A stretch of 64,000 nt of DNA, from the IMG/VR virus record IMGVR_UViG_3300031647_000001. One strand, given 5' to 3'. The notes beneath the pieces were generated by a model. The model ran no database searches and was not told the origin of the DNA. It saw only the letters and a program-made list of their open reading frames with translations. Both the position numbers and the translations under genes were made by a program. This stretch comes from a virus. How positions within the stretch are numbered: the stretch's first letter is position 1; each line of letters starts with the position of its first letter. Shown one piece after another: positions 5,931 to 42,575 of the stretch.

Positions 5931-7100
5931 ATGTCAATGACAGATGAAATAAAAAAAGTTGTCGCTGAAGGCGTAAATGCCGAAGTAACTGAAGATGAAA
6001 TCTCTGAAGTTGCGGAAGTTGAAGCAGAGCAGGAAGTTGTAGAAGCTAAAGACGATAAAGAAGAAGACGATAAAGAAACTGAGAATGATTCTGACGAAGA
6101 TGAAGAAGAGGATGTCAAAGAAAATGACGAATCTGATGAAGACGAAGAAGAAGAAGACGAAGTGACTGAAGTCCAAATTCCTAAGACTAAAGCTGCTGTA
6201 ATTAACGCTGCTGTTCAAATGCTGAAGAAAGCGAAGAAAGACGAAGCGCAACAGTTATTTGCCAAGATGGTAAAAATGTCTGAGTCTGAAGACGAAGGTG
6301 GATTGGTTAAAAAGGGCGAAAAAGCAGGACCTGGAAAGGTTGCTACACCCAAAGCCAAAGCATCTAAAGTCGTAGAGGCGAACTGGGACGAAGATCTAGA
6401 TCTTATTGTCGCAGAAGAGGCAACACTATCGGATGGATTCCGTGATAAAGCTAGTGCAATCTTTGAGGCTGCTTACAAATCAAAAGTAAGTGCTGAAATA
6501 GATAGACTAGAAGCAGAATATGCGCAAAACCTTGAAGAAGAAGTTAATGACGTTCAAAGCTCACTCGTAGAAAAAGTAGATTCTTACTTAAACTATGTTG
6601 TTGAAGGATGGATGGAGCAAAATGAAGTTGCAATAGAACAAGGTCTTAGGACTGAAGTTGCAGAGCAATTCATGGAATCATTACAAACTGTATTCAAGGA
6701 ACATTATATAGAAGTTCCCGAAGGGAAAGCAGACCTAGTCGACGATTTAGCCGACCAAGTAGCTGAACTAGAAGAACAACTAAATAAAACCACAGAAGAG
6801 AACATAGGATTATTTGAAAGCAATAACGCACACGTTAAAGCTAGAATTATATCTGAGCAATCTTCAGGCTTAGCAGCAACCGAAGCTGAGAAACTATCAT
6901 CTTTAGTAGAAGATATAGATTTTGATAATGCAAGTACTTTCGAAATGAAAGTAAATACCATTAAAGAATCTTACTTCATTAATGAAGTTAGTGGAACAGT
7001 TGATGAAGCTGATGCTCTAATTGGTAACGACGAAGCTCCAGTAGTTTCTGTTGGTGTCATGGATGCATACACTAAAGCCATAACAAAAGCTAGTAAATAG
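5931..7100 (+). CDS. gp22: Prohead core scaffolding protein
   Basis: Acidic N-terminus; KVDSYLNYVVE.W and LKTVF.EHYIEVP-like motifs; position between gp21 and gp23. Confidence 0.93.
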   Translation: MSMTDEIKKVVAEGVNAEVTEDEISEVAEVEAEQEVVEAKDDKEEDDKETENDSDEDEEEDVKENDESDEDEEEEDEVTEVQIPKTKAAVINAAVQMLKKAKKDEAQQLFAKMVKMSESEDEGGLVKKGEKAGPGKVATPKAKASKVVEANWDEDLDLIVAEEATLSDGFRDKASAIFEAAYKSKVSAEIDRLEAEYAQNLEEEVNDVQSSLVEKVDSYLNYVVEGWMEQNEVAIEQGLRTEVAEQFMESLQTVFKEHYIEVPEGKADLVDDLADQVAELEEQLNKTTEENIGLFESNNAHVKARIISEQSSGLAATEAEKLSSLVEDIDFDNASTFEMKVNTIKESYFINEVSGTVDEADALIGNDEAPVVSVGVMDAYTKAITKASK

Positions 7101-7134
7101 TTAATATTAATAAAACATATAGGGGAAACTAAAA

Positions 7135-8457
7135 ATGTTTAACGCAGACGCACAATTAATGGAGAAATGGTCTCCAGTGTTGGAACACACAGATGTTCCA
7201 AGTATCGAAGATAGATACAAAAAAGCGGTAACTGCCCGTCTTCTTGAAAACCAAGAAGTAGCTTTACAAGAAGAAAGAGTACAACAATCATTTGGTAATG
7301 TAAATGAAGCCGCAGCTAACGCCGCTGGTGGAATTTCTAACTTTGATCCAGTACTTATCTCTTTAGTAAGACGAGCAATGCCAAACCTTATTGCATATGA
7401 TATCGCAGGCGTGCAGCCTATGAGTGGACCAACTGGTCTTATCTTTGCAATGAAATCAAAGTATACTGCACAGAATGGAACAGAGGCTTTATTCAATGAA
7501 GCTGATACTGACTTTTCTGGTACAGGTACTCATCAAGCCGAACCTACTGGTTTAGGCGGAGCAACGGATGCTGATACAGACGGAAGTATTGCAGATACAG
7601 CAGCAGCTGATATCACTAATACATTCGGTTCTGGTCTACCAACTGCTACTGCAGAACAACGTGGTATGTCAGGTGGAGCTGGTGCAGCTTTCGGTGAAAT
7701 GGCTTTCTCAATCGAGAAATCTACTGTAACTGCTAAGTCAAGAGCTCTTAAAGCTGAATACACTATGGAACTTGCTCAAGATCTTAAAGCAATCCACGGT
7801 CTAGACGCTGAAGGCGAACTTGCTAATATCCTATCTGCTGAAATCCTTGCGGAAATCAACAGAGAAGTAGTTAGAACAGTTCTTACTAAAGCTAAAATCG
7901 GTGCTCTACAATCTTCAACTGCTATTTCTGGTGTCTTTGACGTCGGTACAGATAGTGATGGAAGATGGATGGCTGAGAAATTTAAAGGACTAGTAATGCA
8001 ACTTGAAAGAGAAGCTAACGTAATTGCTAAAGAAACAAGACGTGGAAAAGGTAACTATGTTATCGTTTCTTCTGATGTTGCTTCAGCTTTAGCTGCTTCT
8101 GGAATGTTGGACTACTCACCTGCAATGTCAACTAACTTAAACGTCGATGATACTGGTAATACTTTTGCCGGTGTTCTTAATGGAAGAATGAAGGTCTATA
8201 TTGATCCTTATGCTACTATTGACTTCGCATGTGTTGGTTACAGAGGTGCTAATCCTTATGACGCTGGTCTATTCTATTGTCCTTACGTTCCTTTAACTAT
8301 GGTTAAAGCGATTGGTGAGACAGACTTCCAGCCTAGAATTGGTTTTAAAACAAGATACGGTATGGTTGCAAATCCATTCGTAGCTGCTGATGGAATTGGT
8401 ACAGATCGTGCTAACCCATACTTTAGAATCTTCAGAATCGACGACATCATGGTGTAA
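7135..8457 (+). CDS. gp23: Major capsid protein
   Basis: LVRRAMPNLIAYDIAGVQPM.GPTGLIFAM, AKSRALKAEYTMELAQDLKAIHGLDAE and FYCPYVPL motifs. Confidence 0.99.
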   Translation: MFNADAQLMEKWSPVLEHTDVPSIEDRYKKAVTARLLENQEVALQEERVQQSFGNVNEAAANAAGGISNFDPVLISLVRRAMPNLIAYDIAGVQPMSGPTGLIFAMKSKYTAQNGTEALFNEADTDFSGTGTHQAEPTGLGGATDADTDGSIADTAAADITNTFGSGLPTATAEQRGMSGGAGAAFGEMAFSIEKSTVTAKSRALKAEYTMELAQDLKAIHGLDAEGELANILSAEILAEINREVVRTVLTKAKIGALQSSTAISGVFDVGTDSDGRWMAEKFKGLVMQLEREANVIAKETRRGKGNYVIVSSDVASALAASGMLDYSPAMSTNLNVDDTGNTFAGVLNGRMKVYIDPYATIDFACVGYRGANPYDAGLFYCPYVPLTMVKAIGETDFQPRIGFKTRYGMVANPFVAADGIGTDRANPYFRIFRIDDIMV

Positions 8458-8485
8458 ACCTGATTTAGTTAATTCTAATTCTTTT

Positions 8486-8514
8486 AAAAGGGGCTCTTCG
8501 GAGTCCCTTTTTTT
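8486..8514 (+). terminator. Rho-independent terminator after gp23
   Basis: GGGGCTC-TTCG-GAGTCCC stem with C(UUCG)G tetraloop and T-run. Confidence 0.9.
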
Positions 8515-8517
8515 ATG

Positions 8518-8525
8518 TATAAATA
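8518..8525 (+). promoter_or_regulatory. Late promoter TATAAATA
   Basis: Exact motif right after the terminator; another copy at 8739-8746 precedes gp3. Confidence 0.65.
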
Positions 8526-8530
8526 GTAGT

Positions 8531-8743
8531 ATGAATATAATAAATAGCAGTTTTCAAAACCAACTATCATCCTACCGTAACAATAACCGTCAAGGTGTTG
8601 TATGGCTTACCACCGAAGGTGCATATGCATGTAGGTTTTACGAGAATCAAGTTTGGCAAAAGGACGAAGTATACGCTGGACGTTCAGAATCATATGCAGA
8701 AGAAGCTGCAGAAAATTATGTATTTAACATTGAGAACGTATAA
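8531..8743 (+). CDS. Hypothetical protein, 70 aa
   Basis: In-frame ATG at 8531 of the tracked ORF 8390..8743, just after a late promoter. Confidence 0.6.
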   Translation: MNIINSSFQNQLSSYRNNNRQGVVWLTTEGAYACRFYENQVWQKDEVYAGRSESYAEEAAENYVFNIENV

Positions 8744-8751
8744 ATAGATAT

Positions 8752-8838
8752 ATGGATGAAAAAACTAACGACGGTAGATGGAACTGGTATGGCGAAAGGC
8801 AACCAGTAGAGGAAGAAGATGGCACTAACACAAAATAA
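8752..8838 (+). CDS. Possible 28-aa peptide (MDEKTNDGRWNWYGERQ...)
   Basis: Short ORF directly after TATAAATA at 8739, overlapping gp3 start. Confidence 0.3.
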   Translation: MDEKTNDGRWNWYGERQPVEEEDGTNTK

Positions 8839-9286
8839 AAACTTTATGAGTCCTGTTGGATTCGTATTCAAACTAGATGCAACTAACTTTGCAAACACCG
8901 AATACTTCTGTACTCAAGTTACTATGCCAGGTATATCCTTATCTGAAGCGGTAGTACCATATAGAGGTGTGAATCTTGCGATGACTGGTGACAGATTACA
9001 GTTCGATGATTTAGCTATCAGGTTTAACGTTACTGAGAATATGGAAAACTATATAGAGATATTCGATTGGATGCATAATATTATACAAGCTAAAGACGCT
9101 GAATCGTATAAGTTTGATGCTTCTCTATTGATTATGTCTTCTCACAATAACCTATTAAAAACTATTAAATTCCAAGAGGTATTTCCTACTAGCTTAACAT
9201 CAGTAGAATTTAACTCTCAAGCAGGTGATGTGGAATACTTGCAAGCTGACGTAACATTTAAATATACTTTATTTGAATTTGCTTAA
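8819..9286 (+). CDS. gp3: Tail completion / tube terminator (gp3-like, gp19 fold)
   Basis: NFMSP.GF.F, PG.SL..A, GD...F..L.I.F.V.ENMENY.EI..W motifs; position after gp23. Confidence 0.8.
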   Translation: MALTQNKNFMSPVGFVFKLDATNFANTEYFCTQVTMPGISLSEAVVPYRGVNLAMTGDRLQFDDLAIRFNVTENMENYIEIFDWMHNIIQAKDAESYKFDASLLIMSSHNNLLKTIKFQEVFPTSLTSVEFNSQAGDVEYLQADVTFKYTLFEFA

Positions 9287-12600: not shown

Positions 12601-12629
12601 ATTATATCATACTTTCTAGCAAATGTACA
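12601..12629 (-). promoter_or_regulatory. Minus-strand sigma70-like promoter
   Basis: Reverse complement reads GGTGTACA-N17-TATAAT with TG extended -10, the same consensus as the + strand promoters. Confidence 0.7.
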
Positions 12630-27357: not shown

Positions 27358-27660
27358 ATGAAAAATATAAAATTAGTCAGATTAACATCAGGTGAAGAAC
27401 TCATCGCAAACGTTGATCTAAACGGTATCGATACTGATACAATTATACTTAAGGATGCAATCGTTCTTATTCCAGCTGGAGAAGGTAAACTAGGCTTTAT
27501 GCCATTTATGCCTTATACAAAAGCCAGGGAAGGATTTGAAGTTGATTTGAAATTCGTTATGTTTATGGTTGACCCAGTAGAAGATCTAGTTAAACAACAT
27601 GCTGGCGCAACAAGTCCTATCGACTTATCTGCTTCTGCACCTTCTGGGATTATTACATAA
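27358..27660 (+). CDS. Conserved T4-like hypothetical protein (Sm-like fold)
   Basis: KLVRLTSGEELI motif. Confidence 0.7.
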   Translation: MKNIKLVRLTSGEELIANVDLNGIDTDTIILKDAIVLIPAGEGKLGFMPFMPYTKAREGFEVDLKFVMFMVDPVEDLVKQHAGATSPIDLSASAPSGIIT

Positions 27661-28064
27661 TGAGTAAGGATTGGGTAAAAGATATTCACGTTATGCAAGC
27701 TAAATATCTTACGCGACAATGGGTTGAAACTAATCCAGATAAACTCAAAGAATTCTTAGAATTTAGAGTTGATTTTCTTAAAGAAGAATTGATGGAAACT
27801 AAAAAAGCTACTACTGAAAACGATCCTGAAGAAATCGTTGATGGTCTTATCGACTTATGTGTAGTAGCAATTGGTACTCTTGATGCTTTTGGAGTAGATC
27901 CTTATAAAGCATGGGATGCAGTACTCGAAGCTAATATGAATAAAGAAGTTGGTAAAAAACCCTCAAGGCCTAACCCTTTGGGAGTGCCAGATTTAATTAA
28001 GCCAGAAGGCTGGGAAGCACCGTCACACAATGGAAACCATGGTAAGTTTAACAATATTCGATAA
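27660..28064 (+). CDS. MazG/PRA-PH-like all-alpha nucleoside triphosphate pyrophosphohydrolase
   Basis: EE..E...A......EIVDGLIDL motif, V..ANM.K, K.IKP.GW. Confidence 0.8.
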   Translation: MSKDWVKDIHVMQAKYLTRQWVETNPDKLKEFLEFRVDFLKEELMETKKATTENDPEEIVDGLIDLCVVAIGTLDAFGVDPYKAWDAVLEANMNKEVGKKPSRPNPLGVPDLIKPEGWEAPSHNGNHGKFNNIR

Positions 28065-29971: not shown

Positions 29972-30000
29972 TGTACATTTGCTGTATACTATGATATAAT
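29972..30000 (+). promoter_or_regulatory. Sigma70-like promoter heading the DNA-modification operon
   Basis: TGTACA-N17-TATAAT. Confidence 0.8.
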
Positions 30001-30024: not shown

Positions 30025-30393
30025 ATGAAAGAAAGTTTAAAAGTTTTACAAGAGTGTGCTGAATTACAAGCTAGAAAATCTGATGATTACCAGAATCAGG
30101 AATCTAACGTTACTCAAGCAATGCATTATCGCAGAGGTGTAGATAGTATACACGATATTATAAACGGTAAAATGTTACGAGCACAATCGCTGCTCGAAGC
30201 AGGCCAACATGGTGACCCAAATTTTGAGTCCCTAGAAGATACCTACAAGGATATGATTAATTACGCATCCTTTGCAGTATCATTTATGCGTGGCAAAATG
30301 GAAGGTCAAGATCCTAACCGTGATTGCTTTAATAGACAAGCTAGACCTTTAGCAAGACCAAGTCACGAAACTGACGAGTGGGAAAGAACATGA
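30025..30393 (+). CDS. DUF1599 / nucleotide-modification-associated all-alpha protein
   Basis: RKSDDY ... ESLEDTYKDMINYA pattern. Confidence 0.7.
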   Translation: MKESLKVLQECAELQARKSDDYQNQESNVTQAMHYRRGVDSIHDIINGKMLRAQSLLEAGQHGDPNFESLEDTYKDMINYASFAVSFMRGKMEGQDPNRDCFNRQARPLARPSHETDEWERT

Positions 30394-31049
30394 TGGAAAT
30401 ACCTGCAGTAAGACAATACTTTAAAACGCAATTAGCAATGGAACGATTTACTACTGATAGAAATGGTAGTAAAACAATTGAAATGATTGGTGCTTCATTT
30501 ATAGCAGATGAACCAGCTATATTTGGTAAACCTAATCAAGAATATATAGATGCTGAATTAGAATGGTACGAAAGCGAATCAACTAATATCACTGATATCT
30601 ATCCTGAAGGAGATAAAGAACCACCAAAGGCTTGGCAAGAAACAGCAAATGTTCATGGTGAAATTAATTCCAACTATGGTCATCTAATATACTCTGAAAA
30701 ATATTATAATCAATATGCTCAAGTAGTAGAAGAACTAGATCAAAATCCTGATAGCCGTAGAGCTGCTATGATTTATACACGTCCTAGCATTTGGCTAGAA
30801 TACAATGATCAGTTTAAAAACGATTTCATATGTACCAATGCAGTAACATATTATATTAGAGACGAGAAGCTACACAGTGTAGTTCAAATGAGATCTAATG
30901 ATGTTATCTTTGGTTATAGAAATGATTACGCTTGGCAAAAATATGTTCTAGACAAATTATCATATGATCTATATGTTCAATCTGGTGACATCCATTGGCA
31001 AGTACAGAACTTACATGTATACGAGAGGCATTTCGATTTAGTAAAATGA
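30390..31049 (+). CDS. gp42: dCMP hydroxymethylase-like enzyme (thymidylate synthase superfamily, T4 gp42 type)
   Basis: KTIEMIGASFIADEP.IFG, ELEWY, GEINSNYG, QNPDSRR..MIYTRPS, DFICTN and RSNDVIFGYRNDYAWQKYVLDKL closely follow T4 gp42 as recalled; the dCMP-specifying Asp is in RND. Confidence 0.92.
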   Translation: MMEIPAVRQYFKTQLAMERFTTDRNGSKTIEMIGASFIADEPAIFGKPNQEYIDAELEWYESESTNITDIYPEGDKEPPKAWQETANVHGEINSNYGHLIYSEKYYNQYAQVVEELDQNPDSRRAAMIYTRPSIWLEYNDQFKNDFICTNAVTYYIRDEKLHSVVQMRSNDVIFGYRNDYAWQKYVLDKLSYDLYVQSGDIHWQVQNLHVYERHFDLVK

Positions 31050-31498
31050 ATAATAATAAATGGTATCCAAGATATTTAGAACTAGCCAAGCTTGTAGCTA
31101 CATGGAGTAAAGATCCAAGTACTCAAGTTGGAGCTGTTGCAGTAGGAAATAAAGGTCAAATATTAGCTCAAGGTTATAACGGATATCCTCGAGGATTTGA
31201 CGATACTAACTATGAAAATAAAGAACATAAGTATGCACGTATAGTCCATGCTGAAATGAATTGTATATACAACGCTTCATGGAATGGAGTATCTCTAAAT
31301 GAAGCTACATTGTTTGTTTGGGGATTACCAGTTTGTCATGAATGCGCTAAAGCTATTATCCAAGTTGGAATAAAGACCGTTGTAATACCACTAACCACGC
31401 AAGAGATTCCGCAAAAATGGGATGACTCTTTTAGATTAACTACTAAATTTTTCGTTGATGCAGGCGTAAAAGTAGAGATACACGATATAAAATTATGA
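31046..31498 (+). CDS. cd: dCMP deaminase
   Basis: WSKDPSTQVGA, GYNG, HAEMN and PVCHEC zinc-binding motifs; ATGA overlap with gp42. Confidence 0.93.
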   Translation: MNNNKWYPRYLELAKLVATWSKDPSTQVGAVAVGNKGQILAQGYNGYPRGFDDTNYENKEHKYARIVHAEMNCIYNASWNGVSLNEATLFVWGLPVCHECAKAIIQVGIKTVVIPLTTQEIPQKWDDSFRLTTKFFVDAGVKVEIHDIKL

Positions 31499-31788
31499 AA
31501 AAATTTGATGTAAAAGAAATAGAACACAGCAAAAGAATATTTAAATCTGCTACTCCAAAATACACACTTGATTGGTATGTAAAATGGGTGGCATCGGTAT
31601 TCGTATTAGCTGCAATGTCAATACGAGGTATTGATGGTTGGCAACTATATGATTTACTCCTGTCAGCTACGGGTGTAGGTCTATGGACAGTAGTTGCACT
31701 GCTTTGGAAAGATAGAGCATTGATTCTATTAAACTCGGTAGGATTTATACTACTAATAAGAAACTTAATAACGTATATATCCTCATGA
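31495..31788 (+). CDS. Small multi-pass membrane protein
   Basis: DWYVKWVAS...WKDRALILLN, three hydrophobic segments. Confidence 0.7.
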   Translation: MKKFDVKEIEHSKRIFKSATPKYTLDWYVKWVASVFVLAAMSIRGIDGWQLYDLLLSATGVGLWTVVALLWKDRALILLNSVGFILLIRNLITYISS

Positions 31789-32231
31789 GATTAGATTATA
31801 AGAACGTCGGAAAGATAGGAATAACATTCTCATGTTTCGATTTATTGCATGCTGGTCATGTCACAATGCTCGAAGAAGCAAAAAGACACTGTGACTATTT
31901 AATAGTAGGATTACAGACAGATCCAAGCATAGACCGACCAGAAAAAAATAAGCCAATCCAATCTATTGTAGAAAGACAAATACAATTAGCTGGACTTAAA
32001 TACGTAGATGAGATAGTAACATACCAAACAGAAAATGATATTATGGATTTACTATTAACATTACCTATAAGTGTCAGAGTAGTTGGCGAAGATTACAAGG
32101 GAAAAGAATTCACTGGTAAAGAGCTCTGTATCCAACAGAAAATTAAAATCATATATAATAGTAGGAAGCACAGTTTTAGTACTTCAACATTGAGAGAAAG
32201 GTTACATGAGAATAGCAATAACAGGAAGTAA
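31785..32231 (+). CDS. TagD-like cytidylyltransferase (HIGH family)
   Basis: FSCFDLLHAGH, LIVGLQTD, KNKP...ER, G.DY, RKHSFSTS motifs. Confidence 0.88.
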   Translation: MRLDYKNVGKIGITFSCFDLLHAGHVTMLEEAKRHCDYLIVGLQTDPSIDRPEKNKPIQSIVERQIQLAGLKYVDEIVTYQTENDIMDLLLTLPISVRVVGEDYKGKEFTGKELCIQQKIKIIYNSRKHSFSTSTLRERLHENSNNRK

Positions 32232-33051
32232 CGGTTACATAGGCAAACGCTTAATAGAAAAATTAAAAGGTAGCGGTCACGATATCTTAGAAATAGATCT
32301 TATTAGGCAGCAAGATTATTACAATCGTGAAGTTAATATTAAAGGTCCAAAGGTATCTTGGAATATCACTACTACACCTTATCATGGTGGATTGCCATGG
32401 TGTTGGATACAATACGATTGTGTAGTCCATTTAGCAGCTTTAGTTAAAGTTGGTGAAAGCGTTGAAAAGCCATGGGAATACTATAATACTAATATCAATG
32501 GTACTCGAAACGTTATCGAAGCATTTCCAGGAGCTAAATTTATTTTTGCTTCAACAGGTGCAGCTTTTGATCCAACGTCTCCTTATGCAAAATCGAAAGT
32601 AGTTGCAGAAGATATAGTAAGAAGTCTATGTGATGACTATACAGTATTTAGATTCTTTAATGTCGGGGGTGGAAAACCAAATAACCCTGAAGGATTATAT
32701 GCCGCTACGCAAAACGCAATTAAATCTGGTGAGTTTACTATTTGGGGAGATGATTATAATACAAGCGATGGAACATGTGTAAGAGATTACGTACACGTCG
32801 ATGATATATGTAATGCAATTATCCGTGCAATCGATAAGCCTGGAAGCTGGGCTGATTACGAACCATTAGGATCAGGACAATCATACACAGTTAAACAATA
32901 CATGGAAACGTTTCTAAAAGTAAACGGTCCATTGTTCGAGCTCAAATACGGACCTCGTAGACCTGGAGATAACGAGTATTCTGCAGTTCCATTTAAGTCA
33001 AAATTTATAACACCAGAAAAAACATTAGAAGATATAGTGAGGATAACATAA
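32206..33051 (+). CDS. galE: GalE-type NAD-dependent UDP-sugar 4-epimerase
   Basis: TGSNGYIG, HLAA..VGES..KP, YAKSK, DGTCVRDYVHV. Confidence 0.85.
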   Translation: MRIAITGSNGYIGKRLIEKLKGSGHDILEIDLIRQQDYYNREVNIKGPKVSWNITTTPYHGGLPWCWIQYDCVVHLAALVKVGESVEKPWEYYNTNINGTRNVIEAFPGAKFIFASTGAAFDPTSPYAKSKVVAEDIVRSLCDDYTVFRFFNVGGGKPNNPEGLYAATQNAIKSGEFTIWGDDYNTSDGTCVRDYVHVDDICNAIIRAIDKPGSWADYEPLGSGQSYTVKQYMETFLKVNGPLFELKYGPRRPGDNEYSAVPFKSKFITPEKTLEDIVRIT

Positions 33052-34160
33052 TGAAAATATTAATAACCGGAATGAATAAAAATCAAACAACAAAAGATTT
33101 CTATTTAAGACAACAGCTAAAGGTAGTACCATCACACTATTCATTGATTCGATGTTTAGAAGATATGGGACACGAGGTAGAGCAAAGATTAGTAAAGATC
33201 GGAGAAGATCTAGGAGATTATGACAAAGTAATCTGTTTCCTAGCATCACCTAGACAAGCTTTACAATTAGCGTTCTATAATGGACTATGGGCTATTCACG
33301 CTACCGCAAAGCATAACCTTATTCTTGCAATGGATGATTGGCAGACAGAAGATATCTTTAAAGGTATTCAATCATGTACAGATAAGGAATCACTCTTAAA
33401 AGAATTTACCATCGGACAAAACAAGATGTGTGACCCTGATATGTCATATGAACTATTAGAACCACATGCTGAAACTTTGTTAGATGCTGTTAAATTCATT
33501 GGAGAGAAAAGAAGGCCAATGTTGTTATCAGTGTTTATGGGTGGTGACATGTCTAAGCTCATTAATTATCCTGAAGATTTATTAGTAGGATATGATCCTA
33601 ATCCATATCATAGGAATCGAACTCCTGGAAATAGAGGCGATATCGAAATAGAAGATATGGAATTCATGGAGCAATCTCTGATGCCAAGTATAGAAGAAGA
33701 TACTATTGGACCCGATGAGAAAGCTATGGTCTTTAACTTCGCTTCACTTGTACAAGGTAAAACAAAACGTTGGTTAAAGCAGCAAAACGTTAGTGAGTGG
33801 GATATCGAATTCTTTGGATCTAGAAAAGAAAAACAAAGACGATTACTCGAAAGTGATATGTGTAAAGTATATGCAGAACAATGGGGAAGTTTAATGCCAG
33901 GTTACCCTCATGCAGGTTCAGGTTGGTGGAGAGCTAGACCTTATCAAGTAGCTGATGGTGGTTCTATTCTAATTGGTGAATACGACGAAATGTATTTGCT
34001 ATATGGAGACGAATACCTTGCAGGCTTAACTGCTCAAAACCTAGAAGAAATGAATATAGAAGAACTAACTTCTGTAGCAGAACGCCAAAAAGATGCGCTA
34101 TATAGTAGGCATCCATTGGATAAAAGAAAGCAACAGAAAGAACTAGGTGTTATTCTGTGA
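33051..34160 (+). CDS. GT-B glycosyltransferase, putative DNA (hydroxy/hydroxymethyl-cytosine) glycosyltransferase
   Basis: N-terminal MKILITGMNK strand, DIEFFG (as in T4 BGT NIEFFG), W.R.RPYQ...GSILIG C-domain pattern; operon context. Confidence 0.7.
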   Translation: MKILITGMNKNQTTKDFYLRQQLKVVPSHYSLIRCLEDMGHEVEQRLVKIGEDLGDYDKVICFLASPRQALQLAFYNGLWAIHATAKHNLILAMDDWQTEDIFKGIQSCTDKESLLKEFTIGQNKMCDPDMSYELLEPHAETLLDAVKFIGEKRRPMLLSVFMGGDMSKLINYPEDLLVGYDPNPYHRNRTPGNRGDIEIEDMEFMEQSLMPSIEEDTIGPDEKAMVFNFASLVQGKTKRWLKQQNVSEWDIEFFGSRKEKQRRLLESDMCKVYAEQWGSLMPGYPHAGSGWWRARPYQVADGGSILIGEYDEMYLLYGDEYLAGLTAQNLEEMNIEELTSVAERQKDALYSRHPLDKRKQQKELGVIL

Positions 34161-35161
34161 AGATATTAGTAGTTGGCGCTGGATTTGCTGGTGCAGTTAT
34201 AGCAAGGGAATGCGCAGAACAAGGACACACGATAGATGTAATAGATCAAAGAGATCACATTGGTGGTAATGCTTATGACTACACTGATGAAAATGGAATA
34301 CGAATTCATAAATATGGTCCACATCTCTTTCATACAAACAACGTTGATGTAGTGAAGTGGCTATCTAGATTTACTGAATGGACTCAGTATCAGCATAAAG
34401 TTAAAGCTCAATTGGATGATGGACGTTATGTTACTCTACCAGTTAATAAAGAAACAAAAGAAATAGTGGGTGAAGAGAATGTACTAGATATTTTCTTTAG
34501 ACCTTACACTTATAAGATGTGGGGTAAAACATTAGATGAATTAAATCCTGCAATAATAAACAGAGTTCCAATACGAGATGATGATAATGAGTTGTATTTT
34601 CCTAATGACAAGTATCAGCAAATGCCGAAAGAAGGTTATACTAAGTTGTTTGAGAATATCTTTAGTCATACTAATATTAACGTATGTACTTCAGTAGCTT
34701 TCAATAAATTAATGGAAGAGGATTATGATTATATCTTTAACTCGATGCCTATAGATGAGTACTTTGATAATTGCCATGGTGAATTGCCATATAGATCTAT
34801 CAAGTTTCATAACGTAACACTAAATCAAACTAAAGTTTTACCAACAGGAACAGTTAATTTTACACATGATGGTCCATTTACAAGAGTAACCGAATGGAAG
34901 AATATAGCAAATCACGGAGTAAACGACTATAAAACAGTGCTTACTTACGAAGAGCCATGTGATTATAAGGATAATAATATGGAAAGATACTATCCAGTTC
35001 AAGACGTAGAAGGAACTAATAGAGATACGTATAAGAAATACAAAGATATGGTAGACGAATCTAAAATGAAATTTATCGGAAGGTGCGGTCAATATGTTTA
35101 TATCGATATGCACATGGCAGTTGGCGGAGCATTAGCAGTAGCAAGGAAATTTTTAAAATGA
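34157..35161 (+). CDS. glf: UDP-galactopyranose mutase
   Basis: VGAGFAG FAD motif, HIGGNAYD, IHKYGPHLFHT, YTYKMWG, RYYP, GRCG.Y.Y.DM. Confidence 0.95.
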   Translation: MKILVVGAGFAGAVIARECAEQGHTIDVIDQRDHIGGNAYDYTDENGIRIHKYGPHLFHTNNVDVVKWLSRFTEWTQYQHKVKAQLDDGRYVTLPVNKETKEIVGEENVLDIFFRPYTYKMWGKTLDELNPAIINRVPIRDDDNELYFPNDKYQQMPKEGYTKLFENIFSHTNINVCTSVAFNKLMEEDYDYIFNSMPIDEYFDNCHGELPYRSIKFHNVTLNQTKVLPTGTVNFTHDGPFTRVTEWKNIANHGVNDYKTVLTYEEPCDYKDNNMERYYPVQDVEGTNRDTYKKYKDMVDESKMKFIGRCGQYVYIDMHMAVGGALAVARKFLK

Positions 35162-36342
35162 ATTACGCATCAATAGTACCCTTAATTGGCGGGTCAACAA
35201 TAGCCATGCAAAACGTATTTGGTAAAAGACCAGAATATATGATGACATACGATGGGTTTCAAGATAATGAAAAGCATCTTATTAATTATTATAATAATGA
35301 AGTACCATATTATAATCTATCAGAAGGACCTAAACCAACTCATAACGTTGATGTAGTAAATACAGTATGTCCTTGTGCAGGATTAAGTTCTCTATCGGTT
35401 GCATCTAGTTCTACTAATGAAGCTAATGACTGGATGGTCACTTCTGCAGAATACGTACTAAGTACAGTTAAACCTAAAGTATTCTGGGGAGAGAATGCAC
35501 CGAGGCTAGCATCTAAAATGGGTGAGCCCGTAGTAGAAAAATTAAGAAGGATTGCTTATAGACATGGATATACATTTTCATTGCTACAAACTAAGTCAAT
35601 ACTCCATGGGCTAAGCCAAACTAGAGATCGATCATTCTATTTCTTTTGGAAAGATAGTAAAGTTCCTCTCTTTGATTATATTCATGAAGCACCAGGAAAC
35701 ATAGCAGAAGATATTAGATCAATATCCTTAGATAGTAGTGATCCAATGTCAGCTTTAACTAATGAAAAAACACCCTCAGAAAATCCATTTTATCGATATG
35801 TATTAGAAGCAATCGAAGGTGGTATTACTCATAAAGAATTCAGTTCCAAGCTTACTAAATCATGTAACGTTATGGACTATATAGAAGAACATACGAATTA
35901 TAAAGAAGTTTCAGTTTGGATGGAAGAGCATGGATTTGAAAAAGAATCTAAGAGATGCTTGACAATGTATCACAAATTAAAATCAGGTGGCAATATTATG
36001 AGAAAGAATATTGAAGTACCATGTGATAAAATTGGTGCATTTGTTGGTCATCTACCAACTATGTTAACTCATCCAGATGAAGACAGATTCTTGACTGTAA
36101 GGGAAGCCTTATACATTATGAGAATGCCAAGTGATTTTGAATTGCTTGACCCTAAAAGAACACTAAACCATATATGTCAAAACGTTCCGGTTACAACTGC
36201 AGAGTTTGCAGCTAAACAGATCTATAAATATTTAAATGGACAGATTGATTTAGTAGACACAGATTTTCTTATTCAAGATAATCGAAAAAAAGCCATAAAA
36301 TATCAAAAAAACAGTGTACAACTCGACAGTTTTATGGTATAA
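35158..36342 (+). CDS. C5-cytosine DNA methyltransferase-like protein with atypical motif I
   Basis: Catalytic PC (CPCAGLS), ENAP (motif VI), QTRDR (motif VIII), R.LTVRE and QNVP (motif X); motif I reads VPLIGG; start by ATGA overlap at 35158. Confidence 0.8.
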   Translation: MNYASIVPLIGGSTIAMQNVFGKRPEYMMTYDGFQDNEKHLINYYNNEVPYYNLSEGPKPTHNVDVVNTVCPCAGLSSLSVASSSTNEANDWMVTSAEYVLSTVKPKVFWGENAPRLASKMGEPVVEKLRRIAYRHGYTFSLLQTKSILHGLSQTRDRSFYFFWKDSKVPLFDYIHEAPGNIAEDIRSISLDSSDPMSALTNEKTPSENPFYRYVLEAIEGGITHKEFSSKLTKSCNVMDYIEEHTNYKEVSVWMEEHGFEKESKRCLTMYHKLKSGGNIMRKNIEVPCDKIGAFVGHLPTMLTHPDEDRFLTVREALYIMRMPSDFELLDPKRTLNHICQNVPVTTAEFAAKQIYKYLNGQIDLVDTDFLIQDNRKKAIKYQKNSVQLDSFMV

Positions 36343-36343
36343 T
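36315..36343 (+). promoter_or_regulatory. Sigma70-like promoter for ahpC-rpsU-uvsX
   Basis: TGTACA-N17-TATAAT. Confidence 0.8.
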
Positions 36344-36366: not shown

Positions 36367-36876
36367 ATGTTAAATACAAACGAAAAATTTCCAGGATTTA
36401 TGCTTAACGGCGTAAACTCGGAAAATCAAATTGTTCAAGTTAAATCAGAAGATCTTTCTGGTTCTTGGGCAGTCATTTACTTCTACCCAAAAGACTTTAC
36501 GTTCATTTGTCCAACTGAAATTTCAGGTATGGATAAACTATGCGAAGAGGCTATTGTAATGGGAGTATCTGGTGATAATGAATATTGTAAGCAAGCTTGG
36601 AAAAAATCCAATCCGCTTATAAAAGACATTACACATACACTGGCAGCCGATCCCGGTTTGTCATTAGCAGGAAGATGTGATATCATTAATATGATTGATC
36701 TTGTAGCAAATAGAGCAACGTTCATTATCGACCCTGAAGGTATAATCCAACATTCATCAATGAATGCAATGGATACTGGAAGGAACGTAGATGTACTATT
36801 ACAAACTCTCGAGGCACTTAAAGCAGGCGGTTTAACCGGATGTGATTGGGTTGCAGGAGAGCAGTTCGTTGCCTAG
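36367..36876 (+). CDS. ahpC: 2-Cys peroxiredoxin (AhpC/TSA)
   Basis: [27 protein letters not shown]. Confidence 0.95.
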
Positions 36877-37120
36877 TGTAGATCTAAGACCGCGTAAACC
36901 AAATCCTAAGGATAAAAGACCTCAGAAGGAAATGCCCTTTGATGTTGGTTTACGCAAATTTAAGAAAGCTTGTGAGAGAGCTGGAATCGTGCAGGAGGTT
37001 CGTAGGAAAGAATTCTATGAAAAGCCAACTGCTAAAAGAAAGAGAAAAAAGGCTGAAGCAATTGCTCGTACTCGCAAGCAAGAAAGAGCAGCAAAATTAA
37101 GACCGAACAGGTGGAGATAA
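36869..37120 (+). CDS. rpsU: Ribosomal protein bS21 with N-terminal extension
   Basis: [32 protein letters not shown] matches S21; likely TTG start after AGGAG. Confidence 0.92.
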
Positions 37121-39883: not shown

Positions 39884-40060
39884 ATGTTAAATTCAATAAA
39901 AAACTGGGTAAAAAATAGATTGCCTGAAAGAACTTCACATGACGGAGTATTGCTTATTGTGATATGCGGTAGTGTGTTGCTTTTTGGTGGTGTAGCTAAA
40001 CTACTCGCATGGGTAGGAATAGGTTACGGTATCTATACTTTAGTCAGAGAGGAAGCGTAA
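39884..40060 (+). CDS. Small membrane protein
   Basis: ERTS.DG..LI pattern with two hydrophobic helices. Confidence 0.6.
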   Translation: MLNSIKNWVKNRLPERTSHDGVLLIVICGSVLLFGGVAKLLAWVGIGYGIYTLVREEA

Positions 40061-40677
40061 TGAGTTATTTAAAATCATTAGGAATGGCAACATTATTAAT
40101 TCCATCATTTTCATTTGCAGACGTAAGTGGTAGTGTAGGATATAGTAGTGATTACATGTGGAGAGGGGCAACTCAATCCAATGGCCAATCTAGCTTTAAC
40201 GCCAATCTTGAAGTAGAATCCAACGGTTTCTTTGCAGGTGCATGGACTGGACAAGTTGACTTCGGAGACGATGCATCTTGGGAAAGGAATCTATATTTAG
40301 GATATGGCTTTAGCGTTAGTGATAACTTAAGCGTCAAAGCGGGTATTAATCAAATACGTTATGACGGTGGTGGAAGAGGCGTGAAAGAAGAAGGATTTGT
40401 TAAAGTAAATTACAAAAACTTAAACGTCATGTATTTTCTAGACACCGAAAATGAAGATGATTACGCGCATATCAGCTATGACATATCGGACTTTGTTCCA
40501 GTAGTAGATGTAGCTCTTGGTTATGGTTACCATGACGAAGAAAATGATTTCTCGACAATGACCGTATCATATGATCTAAACGATGAATTCGAACTTAGCA
40601 TGATGGTAATGCTTGACATGGCTTTCGAAAATCAGTTTAGTGATTCTGTATCTCTCGGTTTACATTATAATTTTTAA
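40060..40677 (+). CDS. TorF/Gcw_chp-like outer-membrane beta-barrel (putative porin)
   Basis: Signal peptide ending SFSFA, SDYMWRG.TQS motif, amphipathic strands, C-terminal YNF. Confidence 0.8.
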   Translation: MSYLKSLGMATLLIPSFSFADVSGSVGYSSDYMWRGATQSNGQSSFNANLEVESNGFFAGAWTGQVDFGDDASWERNLYLGYGFSVSDNLSVKAGINQIRYDGGGRGVKEEGFVKVNYKNLNVMYFLDTENEDDYAHISYDISDFVPVVDVALGYGYHDEENDFSTMTVSYDLNDEFELSMMVMLDMAFENQFSDSVSLGLHYNF

Positions 40678-40695
40678 GAAAAGGACTAATATATA

Positions 40696-41352
40696 ATGAT
40701 GGATGTGAAACTCATATCATATTCACAACCAGCTGTAGACTTCGATATACCAAACGATGTTCTACAGTTGGTTGCCTATTGCGCTAGGGTATCAAACCCA
40801 GACAATCAGAATAATGAAAAAACAGCAGAAGGTCTAGTTAAGTATTTAATGAAGCACAAACATTGGTCACCATTAGAAATGGTATCTGTTTGTATGGAGA
40901 TTAATTGCCCTAGAGACATTGCTAGACAAATACTTCGGCATCGTTCATTCTCTTTTCAAGAGTTTAGTCAACGATACGCCGACCCAACAAAAGACTTAAA
41001 GTTCACTACGAGAGCAGCAAGGATGCAAGATCCTAGTAACCGTCAGAATTCTATTGAATTACCAGAAGACGATACTATTAACTACATCTGGGAATCATAT
41101 CAAGAAACAATAATCGAAAGATGTAAGAAAGCATATGATTGGGCTATCGAAGCTGGCATAGCAAAAGAACAAGCCCGTGCAGTATTGCCTGAGGGTTTAA
41201 CTATGTCACGTATGTATGTTAATGGAACGCTAAGAAGCTGGATTCATTACATAGAACTAAGAGGATCTCATGGTACTCAAGAAGAACACATAGAAATAGC
41301 CAAAGCCTGTGGCAAGGTAATTGACACCATATTCACTCCCTTATCTAAATAA
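40696..41352 (+). CDS. thyX: Flavin-dependent thymidylate synthase
   Basis: ARVSNP, HWSPLEM, RHRSFSFQEFSQRY, EQARAVLP, NGTLRSWIHY. Confidence 0.96.
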   Translation: MMDVKLISYSQPAVDFDIPNDVLQLVAYCARVSNPDNQNNEKTAEGLVKYLMKHKHWSPLEMVSVCMEINCPRDIARQILRHRSFSFQEFSQRYADPTKDLKFTTRAARMQDPSNRQNSIELPEDDTINYIWESYQETIIERCKKAYDWAIEAGIAKEQARAVLPEGLTMSRMYVNGTLRSWIHYIELRGSHGTQEEHIEIAKACGKVIDTIFTPLSK

Positions 41353-41848: not shown

Positions 41849-42135
41849 TGAATACTCCCGGAATCCAATACGATATGTTTAGTGATACGTTTACTGCAAG
41901 GTTCGAGCACATAGCAACAACCTACCCAGTATACTTATATCTAAATGAAAATGAGTTTAAGCTCATGACAGTCAAAGAGAACATGGATGCTAAGTTCGAC
42001 CAAGCATTACAGTCACTTTGGTTAAGAGGCATTATCCCTCAAACTGGCGGTTCAGTTAATGAAGATATTGCCGACTTTCAAGAGAATCACTTCCTTGAAG
42101 GTGTATACAAAAATGAACAATTAAGGAGTCACTAA
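41848..42135 (+). CDS. Hypothetical protein
   Basis: Coupled ORF (TAATG overlap). Confidence 0.55.
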   Translation: MNTPGIQYDMFSDTFTARFEHIATTYPVYLYLNENEFKLMTVKENMDAKFDQALQSLWLRGIIPQTGGSVNEDIADFQENHFLEGVYKNEQLRSH

Positions 42136-42575
42136 TGACACAAGCACAATTAAAGCAAACGCAATCAGCTATCCTAGTTGACATGGATGGAACGTTGTGC
42201 CATAGAGAAGGATTCACCGATAGAGATCCGTATGATTACACTAGATCTGGTGAAGATGGATTAGACCCAACGGTTGCAGATATCGTTCAAAGATTTTCTG
42301 CTGACCATACTATTATCATCTTTACAGCAAGACCTGCTGCAGCTGAATTCATTTGCAGAACATGGTTGAAAGAACATGGTGTTACATTCGACGCTATCTT
42401 CCTCAGGAAAGACAAAGACTTTAGAGAAGATTCAATCGTTAAATGGGAAATGTTTCAAGAACATGTTGAGCCATTCTACAAAGTTGCATTCGTCTTAGAT
42501 GACAGGCAACAAGTTGTAGACATGTGGAGAGCAAACGGATTAAAGACATTACAGGTTGCGTCCGGTGATTTTTAA
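42135..42575 (+). CDS. HAD phosphatase resembling the T4 PseT/Pnk 3'-phosphatase domain (no kinase domain)
   Basis: DMDGT, TARP, R..KD.R.D..VK and DDRQQVVDMWR motifs. Confidence 0.85.
   Translation: MTQAQLKQTQSAILVDMDGTLCHREGFTDRDPYDYTRSGEDGLDPTVADIVQRFSADHTIIIFTARPAAAEFICRTWLKEHGVTFDAIFLRKDKDFREDSIVKWEMFQEHVEPFYKVAFVLDDRQQVVDMWRANGLKTLQVASGDF

Follow-up and report, generated by a model that had tools for sequence, protein, structure and literature searches.

The window analyzed here is a stretch of 64,000 nucleotides (nt) of viral DNA (IMG/VR record IMGVR_UViG_3300031647_000001), part of a 77.1-kb viral contig of 43% completeness according to CheckV, and our subject is a block of nine open reading frames (ORFs) on its plus strand, at positions 30025-36342, that may encode a pathway for glycosylation of hydroxymethylated cytosine in phage DNA. 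In the direction of transcription, these genes encode a DUF1599 protein, an ortholog of the T4 deoxycytidylate (dCMP) hydroxymethylase gp42, a dCMP deaminase, a small membrane protein of the DUF6552 family, a nucleotidyltransferase, a GalE-like epimerase, a glycosyltransferase (GT) of 369 amino acids (aa) which we denote GT369, a UDP-galactopyranose mutase (Glf) and a homolog of C5-cytosine DNA methyltransferases (C5-MTase). All nine ORFs of a first-pass annotation lie where it had placed them, and each of its family assignments was reproduced with Pfam, PHROGs and NCBIfam.

The source of this DNA is an uncultured marine T4-like phage. The GC content is about 35%, the plus strand holds nearly all long ORFs, and the contig carries T4-type genes for replication and morphogenesis, namely those for a family-B DNA polymerase, a sliding clamp, a gp55-like late sigma factor, UvsX, a gp41-like helicase, a prohead protease and a tail tube protein. 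When the operon was compared by megablast with 50,697 phage records, no match and, accordingly, no close relative was found. With the likeliest, corrected start codons of the gp42 ortholog (ATG at 30390), the deaminase (ATG at 31046) and the methyltransferase homolog (ATG at 35158), all junctions in the block overlap, by 1 to 26 nt, with a 4-nt overlap at five of them. The promoter that had been noticed at the head of the block (29972..30000, plus strand; TGTACA-N17-TATAAT with an extended -10 TG) is one of 15 copies of a recurrent motif in the window, where 1.2 copies are expected. Fourteen of these copies are on the plus strand (the sites include 9295, 12664, 16390, 18782, 24725, 27309, 29972, 36315, 41376, 59696 and 61568), and the sole copy on the minus strand is at 12601-12629. 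Given that no copy occurs between 29972 and 36315, the block is best viewed as one transcription unit, the end of which is marked by the next copy, at 36315..36343 on the plus strand.

For comparison, we relied on a wider set of 80 IMG/VR loci, out of the 231 found in a search seeded with a 12-sequence alignment, in which the glycosyltransferase is 43-86% identical; because many of these loci are closely related, all counts given below are descriptive rather than numbers of independent events.

Genes for the predicted synthesis of a modified base

The hydroxymethylase candidate (30390..31049, plus strand) aligns over residues 5-222 with residues 5-225 of T4 dCMP hydroxymethylase (phmmer; PDB 1b5e and 1b49; E = 7.5e-73 for 1b5e). 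The motifs NDFICTN, with the catalytic Cys, and RSNDVIFGYRND are present, in agreement with the DFICTN and RND signatures by which a gp42-like protein had been recognized in the first place. Homology thus identifies this protein as an ortholog of gp42 that is predicted to convert dCMP to 5-hydroxymethyl-dCMP (hmdCMP). The product can be predicted from residues that have been described as diagnostic among the homologs of thymidylate synthase (TS): Asp at the position of ThyA N177 makes the enzyme specific for cytosine, an acidic side chain at the position of L143, which affects water access, goes with a hydroxymethyl product, and Asn at D169 with 5-hydroxy-dCMP (5hodCMP) synthases (PMC13326640). 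The protein encoded in the window has Asp at all three positions, with RSND as in T4. The same combination is found in each of the 53 TS motifs recovered from the related loci, and also in the gp42 proteins of Aeromonas phage 25 and Erwinia phage FBB1. With Asp at all three diagnostic positions, the predicted aglycone is 5-hydroxymethylcytosine (5hmC), not 5-hydroxycytosine (5hoC).

Could the aglycone nevertheless be 5hoC, as the first-pass annotation had allowed, with the sugar in a direct ether linkage? Glycosylated 5hoC is made by RB69, DLP3 and Rhizobium phage RL38J1 (Lee et al., NAR 2026, PMC13326640), and two facts seem to favor such a scheme: RL38J1 joins a 5hodCMP synthase with Glf, and a full-length relative of GT369 (hhalign probability 100, E = 6e-40) is encoded in Morganella phage Rgz1 beside an arabinose-5-phosphate isomerase, within an RB69-like arabinosylation cluster of the 5hoC type. 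However, the TS homolog of the Rgz1 cluster reads RSQN, with Asn at the D169 position, whereas this diagnostic replacement is absent from the protein in the window, which besides matches T4 gp42 over nearly its full length. We therefore consider 5hoC a highly improbable aglycone and proceed with 5hmC as the predicted base.

The thymidylate supply of the phage is compatible with this assignment. The dCMP deaminase (31046..31498, plus strand; PF00383, 73 bits; phrog_174, 148 bits), by producing dUMP, and the flavin-dependent thymidylate synthase ThyX (40696..41352, plus strand; phrog_85, 232 bits), a separate gene already noticed at 40696, would together account for dTMP, as judged by homology. 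With dTMP supplied by ThyX, the ThyA-family gene is available for the modification of cytosine.

Two proteins are candidates for the role of the T4 dCTPase-dUTPase, gp56. One is a MazG-like/PRA-PH nucleoside triphosphate (NTP) pyrophosphohydrolase (27660..28064, plus strand; PF01503, 42.7 bits; phrog_671, nucleotide pyrophosphohydrolase) that shows a weak match to DR2231, a MazG-like NTP pyrophosphatase (NTP-PPase); the gene is located outside the operon, in the relatives is kept just after the DNA polymerase gene, and PRA-PH genes accompany genes of the GT369 family in distant phage contigs as well. The other is the DUF1599 protein ('nucleotide modification associated domain 1'; 30025..30393, plus strand; PF07659, 26 bits), an all-alpha protein related to NTP-PPases, encoded directly upstream of gp42 or the glycosyltransferase in 50 of the 80 related loci. 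The profile phrog_18404, labeled 'hydrolase', matches both proteins.

GT369 and its genomic context

GT369 (33051..34160, plus strand) belongs to an unnamed, phage-restricted family and is recognized as a GT-B glycosyltransferase from its AlphaFold model and gene context, having no sequence match in Pfam, NCBIfam or the PDB. An exhaustive search yielded 482 clusters of relatives, and the family is essentially viral; comparison of 98 aligned members with Pfam produced no named family, only a single marginal match to DUF6985 (E = 0.0085). The structure was modeled with the 98-sequence alignment (mean predicted local distance difference test score, pLDDT, 93.1; predicted template modeling score 0.91), and a single-sequence prediction (pLDDT 34) was discarded. 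Thus, the GT-B label given to this ORF by the first-pass annotation is borne out by the alignment-based model, whereas no match to a sequence family backs it. In a comparison of the model with 48,161 PDB chains (VIA-align), T4 beta-glucosyltransferase (BGT; 1c3j) ranks first, with Z = 17.2 and a root mean square deviation of 3.5 over 287 residues, followed by T4 alpha-glucosyltransferase (AGT; Z = 15.9), and a Foldseek search of the PDB also puts T4 BGT (1nzd) first (E = 5e-6, TM-scores of 0.52-0.58) and lists T4 AGT along with the DNA glycosyltransferase of phage HY126. The fold comparison with T4 BGT that had been called for thus came out in favor of the DNA-modifying enzymes. The fold of the model is GT-B, and the preference for DNA glycosyltransferases, although narrow, is consistent. 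A nearly invariant residue, Asp96 of the DDWQ motif, is the candidate for the catalytic Asp.

At the sequence level, no such link is seen. The profile of the GT369 family finds nothing in T4, and RB69 likewise lacks a family member; comparison of the family with RB69 gp3 using hhalign revealed no relation, such that the kinship with the RB69 arabinosyltransferase that had been envisaged does not hold for RB69 itself but only for Gualtarvirus-type clusters, as in Rgz1. The Pfam model of BGT (PF09198, GT63) had no match in the contig, in a search that was uninformative given that the control genomes also lacked PF09198 matches.

The genomic context of the family speaks more directly to its function. 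In ten close relatives, with 76-86% identity in the glycosyltransferase, the genes are likewise arranged as DUF1599, gp42, deaminase, GT369, Glf, C5-MTase and UvsX, with the membrane protein, the nucleotidyltransferase and an epimerase of the type found in the window as optional members. In the wider set, Glf abuts GT369 in 61 of the 74 loci with room for it, and a gp42-type gene is found in 50 of the 57 loci with at least 3 kb of upstream sequence, within 2.5 kb in 44 of these. The synteny of glf and gp42, on which the first-pass annotation had made its proposal depend, is observed in each of the ten close relatives and in the majority of the 80 wider loci. In a subgroup that lacks Glf (L091, L094, L096, L097, L099-L106 and L108), the order is gp42, DUF1599, GT369, UvsX, and in most of these loci only some 75 nt separate the glycosyltransferase gene from uvsX; we take this position to be the slot occupied in the T4 map by beta-gt, between gene 42 and uvsX. 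These phages presumably use a sugar nucleotide of the host.

Among cultured phages, Aeromonas phage 25 and Erwinia phage FBB1 have GT369 and Glf between motA and asiA, and both possess gp42 orthologs; adjacent GT369 and Glf genes were also detected, by tblastn, in related Aeromonas phages and in Stenotrophomonas phage IME13, and the cultured carriers from Aeromonas include Aes508 and phiAS4. In phage 25 (NC_008208.1), the pair corresponds to two genes at 6896-9077 annotated as 'hypothetical, not conserved in 44RR2.8t'. Petrov et al. 2010 recorded genes 42 and 56 in this phage and the lack of any known glucosyltransferase gene, and the two genes at 6896-9077 are candidates for the transferase that was noted as missing at the time. 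A different acceptor route is suggested by phage C48C1 (Kyanoviridae; OQ984149.1, 7586-11033), in which a TET/JBP oxygenase is encoded directly upstream of GT369 and Glf, and neither a TS homolog nor a C5-MTase was found; here the acceptor may be 5-hydroxymethyluracil produced from thymine, which would give a furanosylated base resembling base J.

The distant members of the family (29-45% identical) for which enough flanking sequence is available are all located in phage nucleotide-metabolism blocks with TS homologs. Their sugar partners vary, being Glf, a UDP-glucose dehydrogenase together with an enzyme of the short-chain dehydrogenase/reductase (SDR) superfamily, or another flavoprotein; the flavoprotein encoded after GT369 in locus L037 was considered as a possible Glf and rejected. 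Five loci (L064, L068, L069, L073 and L084) present a four-gene module of epimerase, GT369, Glf and nucleotidyltransferase, with no TS homolog within 10 kb.

These contexts bear on the possibility that the sugar genes serve an auxiliary metabolic function, acting on a surface glycan of the host or on virion proteins, with the phage DNA containing plain 5hmC. Glf, GalE and HldC- or TagD-like enzymes normally serve the synthesis of lipopolysaccharide, capsule and teichoic acid. A phage Glf has been annotated in this sense in an earlier phage paper, the neighbors of GT369 among the AlphaFold models of Swiss-Prot proteins are generic GT4 enzymes only, including those of O-antigen synthesis, and a small membrane protein is encoded inside the operon. 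Against this stand the absence of a signal peptide or membrane segment from the GT369 model, the essentially viral distribution of the family, its occupation of the beta-gt slot, and its fusion to DNA methylase domains (see below); every context that we examined is a nucleotide-metabolism or replication block, and no host-glycan context was seen around GT369 in any of these loci. A role in surface glycan synthesis therefore appears quite unlikely to us. The GT369 family is tied to cytosine-modifying enzymes by neighborhood, position and fusion, and GT369 itself is a candidate DNA (5hmC) furanosyltransferase, with the acceptor deduced from gene context and the fusions.

Genes for the probable sugar donor

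The mutase Glf (34157..35161, plus strand; PF03275, 180 bits; TIGR00031, 282.3 bits, cut-off 303.75) is a shortened version of the enzyme, with a deletion of some 40 aa in the helical domain relative to the UDP-galactopyranose mutase of D. radiodurans (PDB 3hdq; E = 6e-76). The N-terminal Rossmann domain that binds FAD is readily recognizable (PF13450, 69 bits; VGAGFAG motif), and an HMMER alignment to 3hdq shows that the residues contacting uridine, diphosphate and FAD are kept. The residues that we take to be the uridine and diphosphate contacts of the D. radiodurans enzyme, F175, F176, Y179, T180, W184, R198, Y209, R305, Y335, R364 and Y370, are all conserved here. By homology, then, Glf would be an intact UDP-hexopyranose mutase. 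The substrate of this enzyme would presumably come from the short GalE-like SDR epimerase (32206..33051, plus strand; PF01370, 113 bits; TIGR01179 galE, 143.6 bits, cut-off 262.3), which contains the GxxGxxG and YxxxK motifs of the SDR superfamily and the PDB matches of which are nearly all UDP-glucose 4-epimerases, the best 35 included (best E = 1.5e-30); conversion of UDP-glucose to UDP-galactopyranose is its likely reaction.

The third enzyme with a probable role in donor synthesis is a HIGH-motif nucleotidyltransferase of 148 aa (31785..32231, plus strand; PF01467, CTP_transf_like, 54 bits). The first-pass annotation had called it TagD-like. The nucleotidyltransferase family is upheld, the label less so, as the protein scores higher with the HldC/RfaE-II profile for the heptose-1-phosphate adenylyltransferase domain (rfaE_dom_II, TIGR02199, 91 bits) than with that of TagD (TIGR01518, 69 bits), both scores being below the cut-offs. 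The gene recurs in GT369 sugar modules, being present in 22 of the 80 related loci, and in a subset of loci it directly follows Glf. The enzyme probably activates a sugar-1-phosphate or a polyol phosphate and probably contributes to this sugar branch or to a second decoration.

The nucleotidyltransferase makes it necessary to consider that hmC DNA is indeed glycosylated by GT369 but that the sugar is a heptose or another sugar activated by this enzyme, or a different furanose produced by Glf, as UDP-L-arabinofuranose or UDP-GalNAc-furanose, or else that the decoration is mixed or added in two steps. In the phage contig 53 described by Pyle et al. 2023 (bioRxiv 10.1101/2023.12.21.572611), a cytidylyltransferase, which is HldC-like, a BGT-like GT-B enzyme and a bifunctional HAD/APH enzyme are required for the formation of heptosyl-5hmC, and this precedent for an HldC-like enzyme providing a heptose donor makes the identity of the sugar less certain than the first-pass annotation had stated. 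The position of the nucleotidyltransferase right after Glf in the four-gene module, the association of GT369 relatives with UDP-glucose dehydrogenase and an SDR enzyme, and the family member inside the arabinofuranose cluster of Rgz1 point in the same direction. On the other side of the balance, the residues that contact uridine and diphosphate in UDP-galactopyranose mutases are retained in Glf, the epimerase matches GalE much better than heptose epimerase (143.6 versus 53.4 bits), most loci with GT369 and Glf have no nucleotidyltransferase gene, and a Pfam search of the operon revealed neither a heptose kinase or phosphatase nor an arabinose-5-phosphate isomerase. On balance, we regard a different sugar as a minor but serious possibility, and galactofuranose as the favored one.

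The small DUF6552 membrane protein, with three predicted transmembrane helices (31495..31788, plus strand; PF20189, 60 bits), is an optional component that is found beside the cluster in three of the 80 related loci, with another copy some 7 kb downstream in a fourth locus. The DUF6552 clusters are almost all viral, and the predicted structure resembles half of a transporter of the PnuC/YgjV type, so this protein is possibly a small transporter.

The methyltransferase homolog and its fusions with GT369

The last gene of the block encodes a homolog of C5-cytosine DNA methyltransferases (35158..36342, plus strand; PF00145, 53.8 bits, cut-off 22). In nine homologs that we compared, PCAGLS, GENAP, QxRxR and QNVPV, representing motifs IV, VI, VIII and X of these enzymes, are invariant, whereas motif I, instead of the canonical FxGxG that binds S-adenosylmethionine, reads VPLIGG, a replacement that is itself invariant in the clade. 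The gene follows Glf in nine of the ten close-relative loci, those that extend far enough, and is present in 29 of the 66 wider loci with room for it. Moreover, nine of ten long proteins of the GT369 family are fusions of a C5-cytosine methylase with GT369 (P0042, P0048, P0050, P0053, P0055, P0056, P0059, P0074 and P0085), and the contigs that encode them also carry PRA-PH, TS and deaminase genes. Two of the fusions contain a domain of the uracil-DNA glycosylase (UDG) superfamily between the methylase and GT369 domains, and in two the N-terminal part, ahead of the methylase domain or inside it, harbors an intein that includes a LAGLIDADG endonuclease; a language-model search with the linker of one fusion protein gave no usable match. 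The C5-MTase homolog is a conserved partner of the sugar genes.

How, then, could a methylase homolog fit into the pathway? One conceivable answer is that it is a working partner of the furanosyltransferase, either a subunit for base flipping or sequence targeting or an enzyme that adds a group other than methyl, the result being a sequence-specific or doubly modified furanosyl-cytosine made by two enzymes in a manner that would be without precedent; we think that this is rather unlikely. Another alternative is that GT369 and the methyltransferase homolog act together on DNA cytosines after replication, in which case the hmC derived from gp42 would not be the acceptor, or not the sole one. The methyltransferase domain would then choose or flip the target base, or else add a group at C5 for further processing. 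The predominance of methylase fusions among the long GT369 proteins, two of them with the UDG-like domain, the location of the gene after the sugar genes both in the clade of the window and in distant clusters, and the combination of an altered motif I with invariant catalytic motifs are all in line with this proposal. But 37 of the 66 related loci with room keep GT369 and lack the methyltransferase, the Aeromonas and Erwinia phages and C48C1 have GT369 and Glf and no C5-MTase, the homologs stand alone in cyanophage S-TIM5, and a TET/JBP oxygenase, which is able to turn 5-methylcytosine into 5hmC, was not found in the contig. Such post-replicative action is, in our opinion, unlikely, and the scheme in which gp42 provides the acceptor remains the preferred one.

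Relationships with known DNA modification systems

The closest parallel is the glucosyl-5hmC pathway of the T-even phages, with which the system described here shares a gp42 ortholog with an identical catalytic signature, a dCMP deaminase, a MazG-type candidate for the pyrophosphatase role of gp56, a GT-B enzyme with BGT and AGT as the nearest folds, and the slot between gene 42 and uvsX. The differences are that GT369 belongs by sequence to neither the BGT (PF09198/GT63) nor the AGT family, that no gp1 kinase was found in the contig, that a C5-MTase homolog is part of the transcription unit, that ThyX replaces Td, and that this phage has its own GalE-like, Glf and nucleotidyltransferase genes for tailoring of the donor. 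Because these donor-tailoring enzymes are encoded by the phage itself, the sugar is unlikely to be plain glucose.

The 5hoC pathways resemble the present one in the clustering of a TS homolog with phage genes for the synthesis of NDP-sugars and with GT-B transferases, and in the RB69-type systems the sugar on cytosine, arabinofuranose, is a furanose as well. In contrast to these systems, the TS homolog in the window is of the hydroxymethylase type, so that the linkage would run through a CH2-O bridge, and the operon has no genes for an arabinose-5-phosphate isomerase, a kinase-pyrophosphorylase or a phosphatase. Phage RL38J1 deserves special mention because it encodes Glf, and synthesis of UDP-galactofuranose for cytosine glycosylation has been proposed (PMC13326640), although its aglycone and its transferases are different from those inferred here, and the GT369 matches in the phage collection include no Rhizobium phage.

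Finally, Pyle et al. have linked BGT-like GT-B DNA glycosyltransferases of phages to thymidylate-synthase homologs and reported hexose, N-acetylhexosamine, heptose, Kdo and hexuronic acid as the sugars; the words 'mutase' and 'furanose' are absent from the text and tables of that study. Their MT/5mYOX- or ThyS-associated clusters are similar to the locus analyzed here in that a GT-B enzyme is encoded beside TS homologs, C5-MTases, epimerases and a cytidylyltransferase, in the frequent dependence of activity on a partner sugar enzyme, and in Foldseek E-values to BGT in the same range; the comparison of GT369 with their GT53, GT66 and GT94 is one of descriptions, not of sequences.

The proposed pathway

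Taking these lines of evidence together, we propose that the operon encodes a T4-type cytosine hypermodification system with a new sugar branch and that its predicted product is DNA with galactofuranosyl-5hmC, a reading that we favor with some, but not high, confidence. The MazG-like pyrophosphatase, perhaps along with the DUF1599 protein, would lower dCTP and raise dCMP; the gp42 ortholog would make hmdCMP, which some kinase and the nucleoside diphosphate kinase of the host would convert to hmdCTP; and the phage polymerase would build hmC DNA. In the donor branch, host UDP-glucose would be converted to UDP-galactopyranose by the GalE-like enzyme and then to UDP-galactofuranose by Glf. GT369 would flip out hmC, as T4 BGT does, and transfer the furanose onto the hydroxymethyl group in duplex DNA. 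The resulting base, 5-(galactofuranosyl-oxymethyl)cytosine, should protect the DNA against the nucleases of restriction and CRISPR systems. Homology and context support the identification of the hydroxymethylase, of the mutase and of a GT-B transferase linked to DNA cytosine as predictions from sequence; which acceptor and donor are used, and which anomer results, is what we infer from the combination of these. Of the proposal made in the first-pass annotation, namely 5hmC, a phage-made furanose donor and transfer to DNA, the overall scheme agrees with the results on fold and synteny, whereas the identity of the sugar stays a conjecture.

Several observations weigh against this proposal. A gp1-type dNMP kinase or a Tmk-type (PF02223) gene was found neither in the 43%-complete contig nor in a complete relative of 219.7 kb (G001), and a control search with T4 gp1 as the query recovers gp1 of Aeromonas phage 25 at E = 1e-33. 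The lead of BGT in the fold comparison is narrow, 17.2 against Z values of 15.8 and below for generic GT-B enzymes, and the Swiss-Prot models that are closest to GT369 are, as mentioned, generic as well. Both Glf and the GalE-like protein miss the equivalog cut-offs of NCBIfam, and the nucleotidyltransferase scores best with the profile of an enzyme type that has yielded heptose elsewhere. A C5-MTase should find little substrate in DNA that is fully substituted with hmC. Furthermore, since the relatives of GT369 pair with other sugar enzymes or with none, membership in the family does not fix the sugar.

With regard to novelty, our literature search found no report of galactofuranose on hmC DNA, nor of DNA sugars in Aeromonas phages, and no description of any furanose on hmC came to light; to this extent the novelty claimed at the outset stands, but it is reduced by the study of Pyle et al. 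2023 and by the report on RL38J1 (NAR 2026).

Neighboring genes

Several genes in the vicinity of the operon are of separate interest. Directly after it, at 36367-36876 of the window, a peroxiredoxin (AhpC/TSA, 82 bits) is encoded, and a peroxiredoxin gene is likewise located near the GT369-Glf block of phage C48C1. It is followed, at 36842-37120, just before uvsX, by a gene for ribosomal protein S21 (PF01165, 61.7 bits) that is kept in the relatives. Between the helicase gene and thyX, at 40009-40677, lies a gene for a 222-aa protein that matches Gcw_chp, a family of the bacterial outer-membrane type (32 bits). Some 6 kb downstream of the operon, at 42135-42575, a haloacid dehalogenase (HAD) phosphatase of the polynucleotide-kinase type (PF25109, HAD_PNKP, 140 bits) is encoded; the sugar-bisphosphate phosphatase of the RB69-like arabinosylation clusters has a HAD domain of the same type.

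Implications

Provided that the proposed chemistry is correct, galactofuranosyl-5hmC would be an addition to the bases known from natural DNA, and GT369, if its role is as predicted, would define a new family of DNA glycosyltransferases for which there is no Pfam model, with some 480 clusters and at least 231 IMG/VR loci. The family is common in marine T4-like phages and extends to cultured phages of Aeromonas and Erwinia, for which the apparent lack of a glucosyltransferase has awaited an explanation since 2010. In practical terms, the enzymes might be of use for labeling of 5hmC and as furanose-specific reagents, and the modification could matter for the restriction and CRISPR resistance profiles of therapeutic Aeromonas phages; the subgroup that lacks Glf should be useful for finding the residues that determine donor specificity. 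In evolutionary terms, the GT369-Glf pair behaves as a movable cassette that is found beside three acceptor routes, those of gp42, of the TET/JBP oxygenase and of the 5hoC synthase clusters, and the variation of the partner sugar enzyme between loci suggests how phages diversify the glycans on their DNA.

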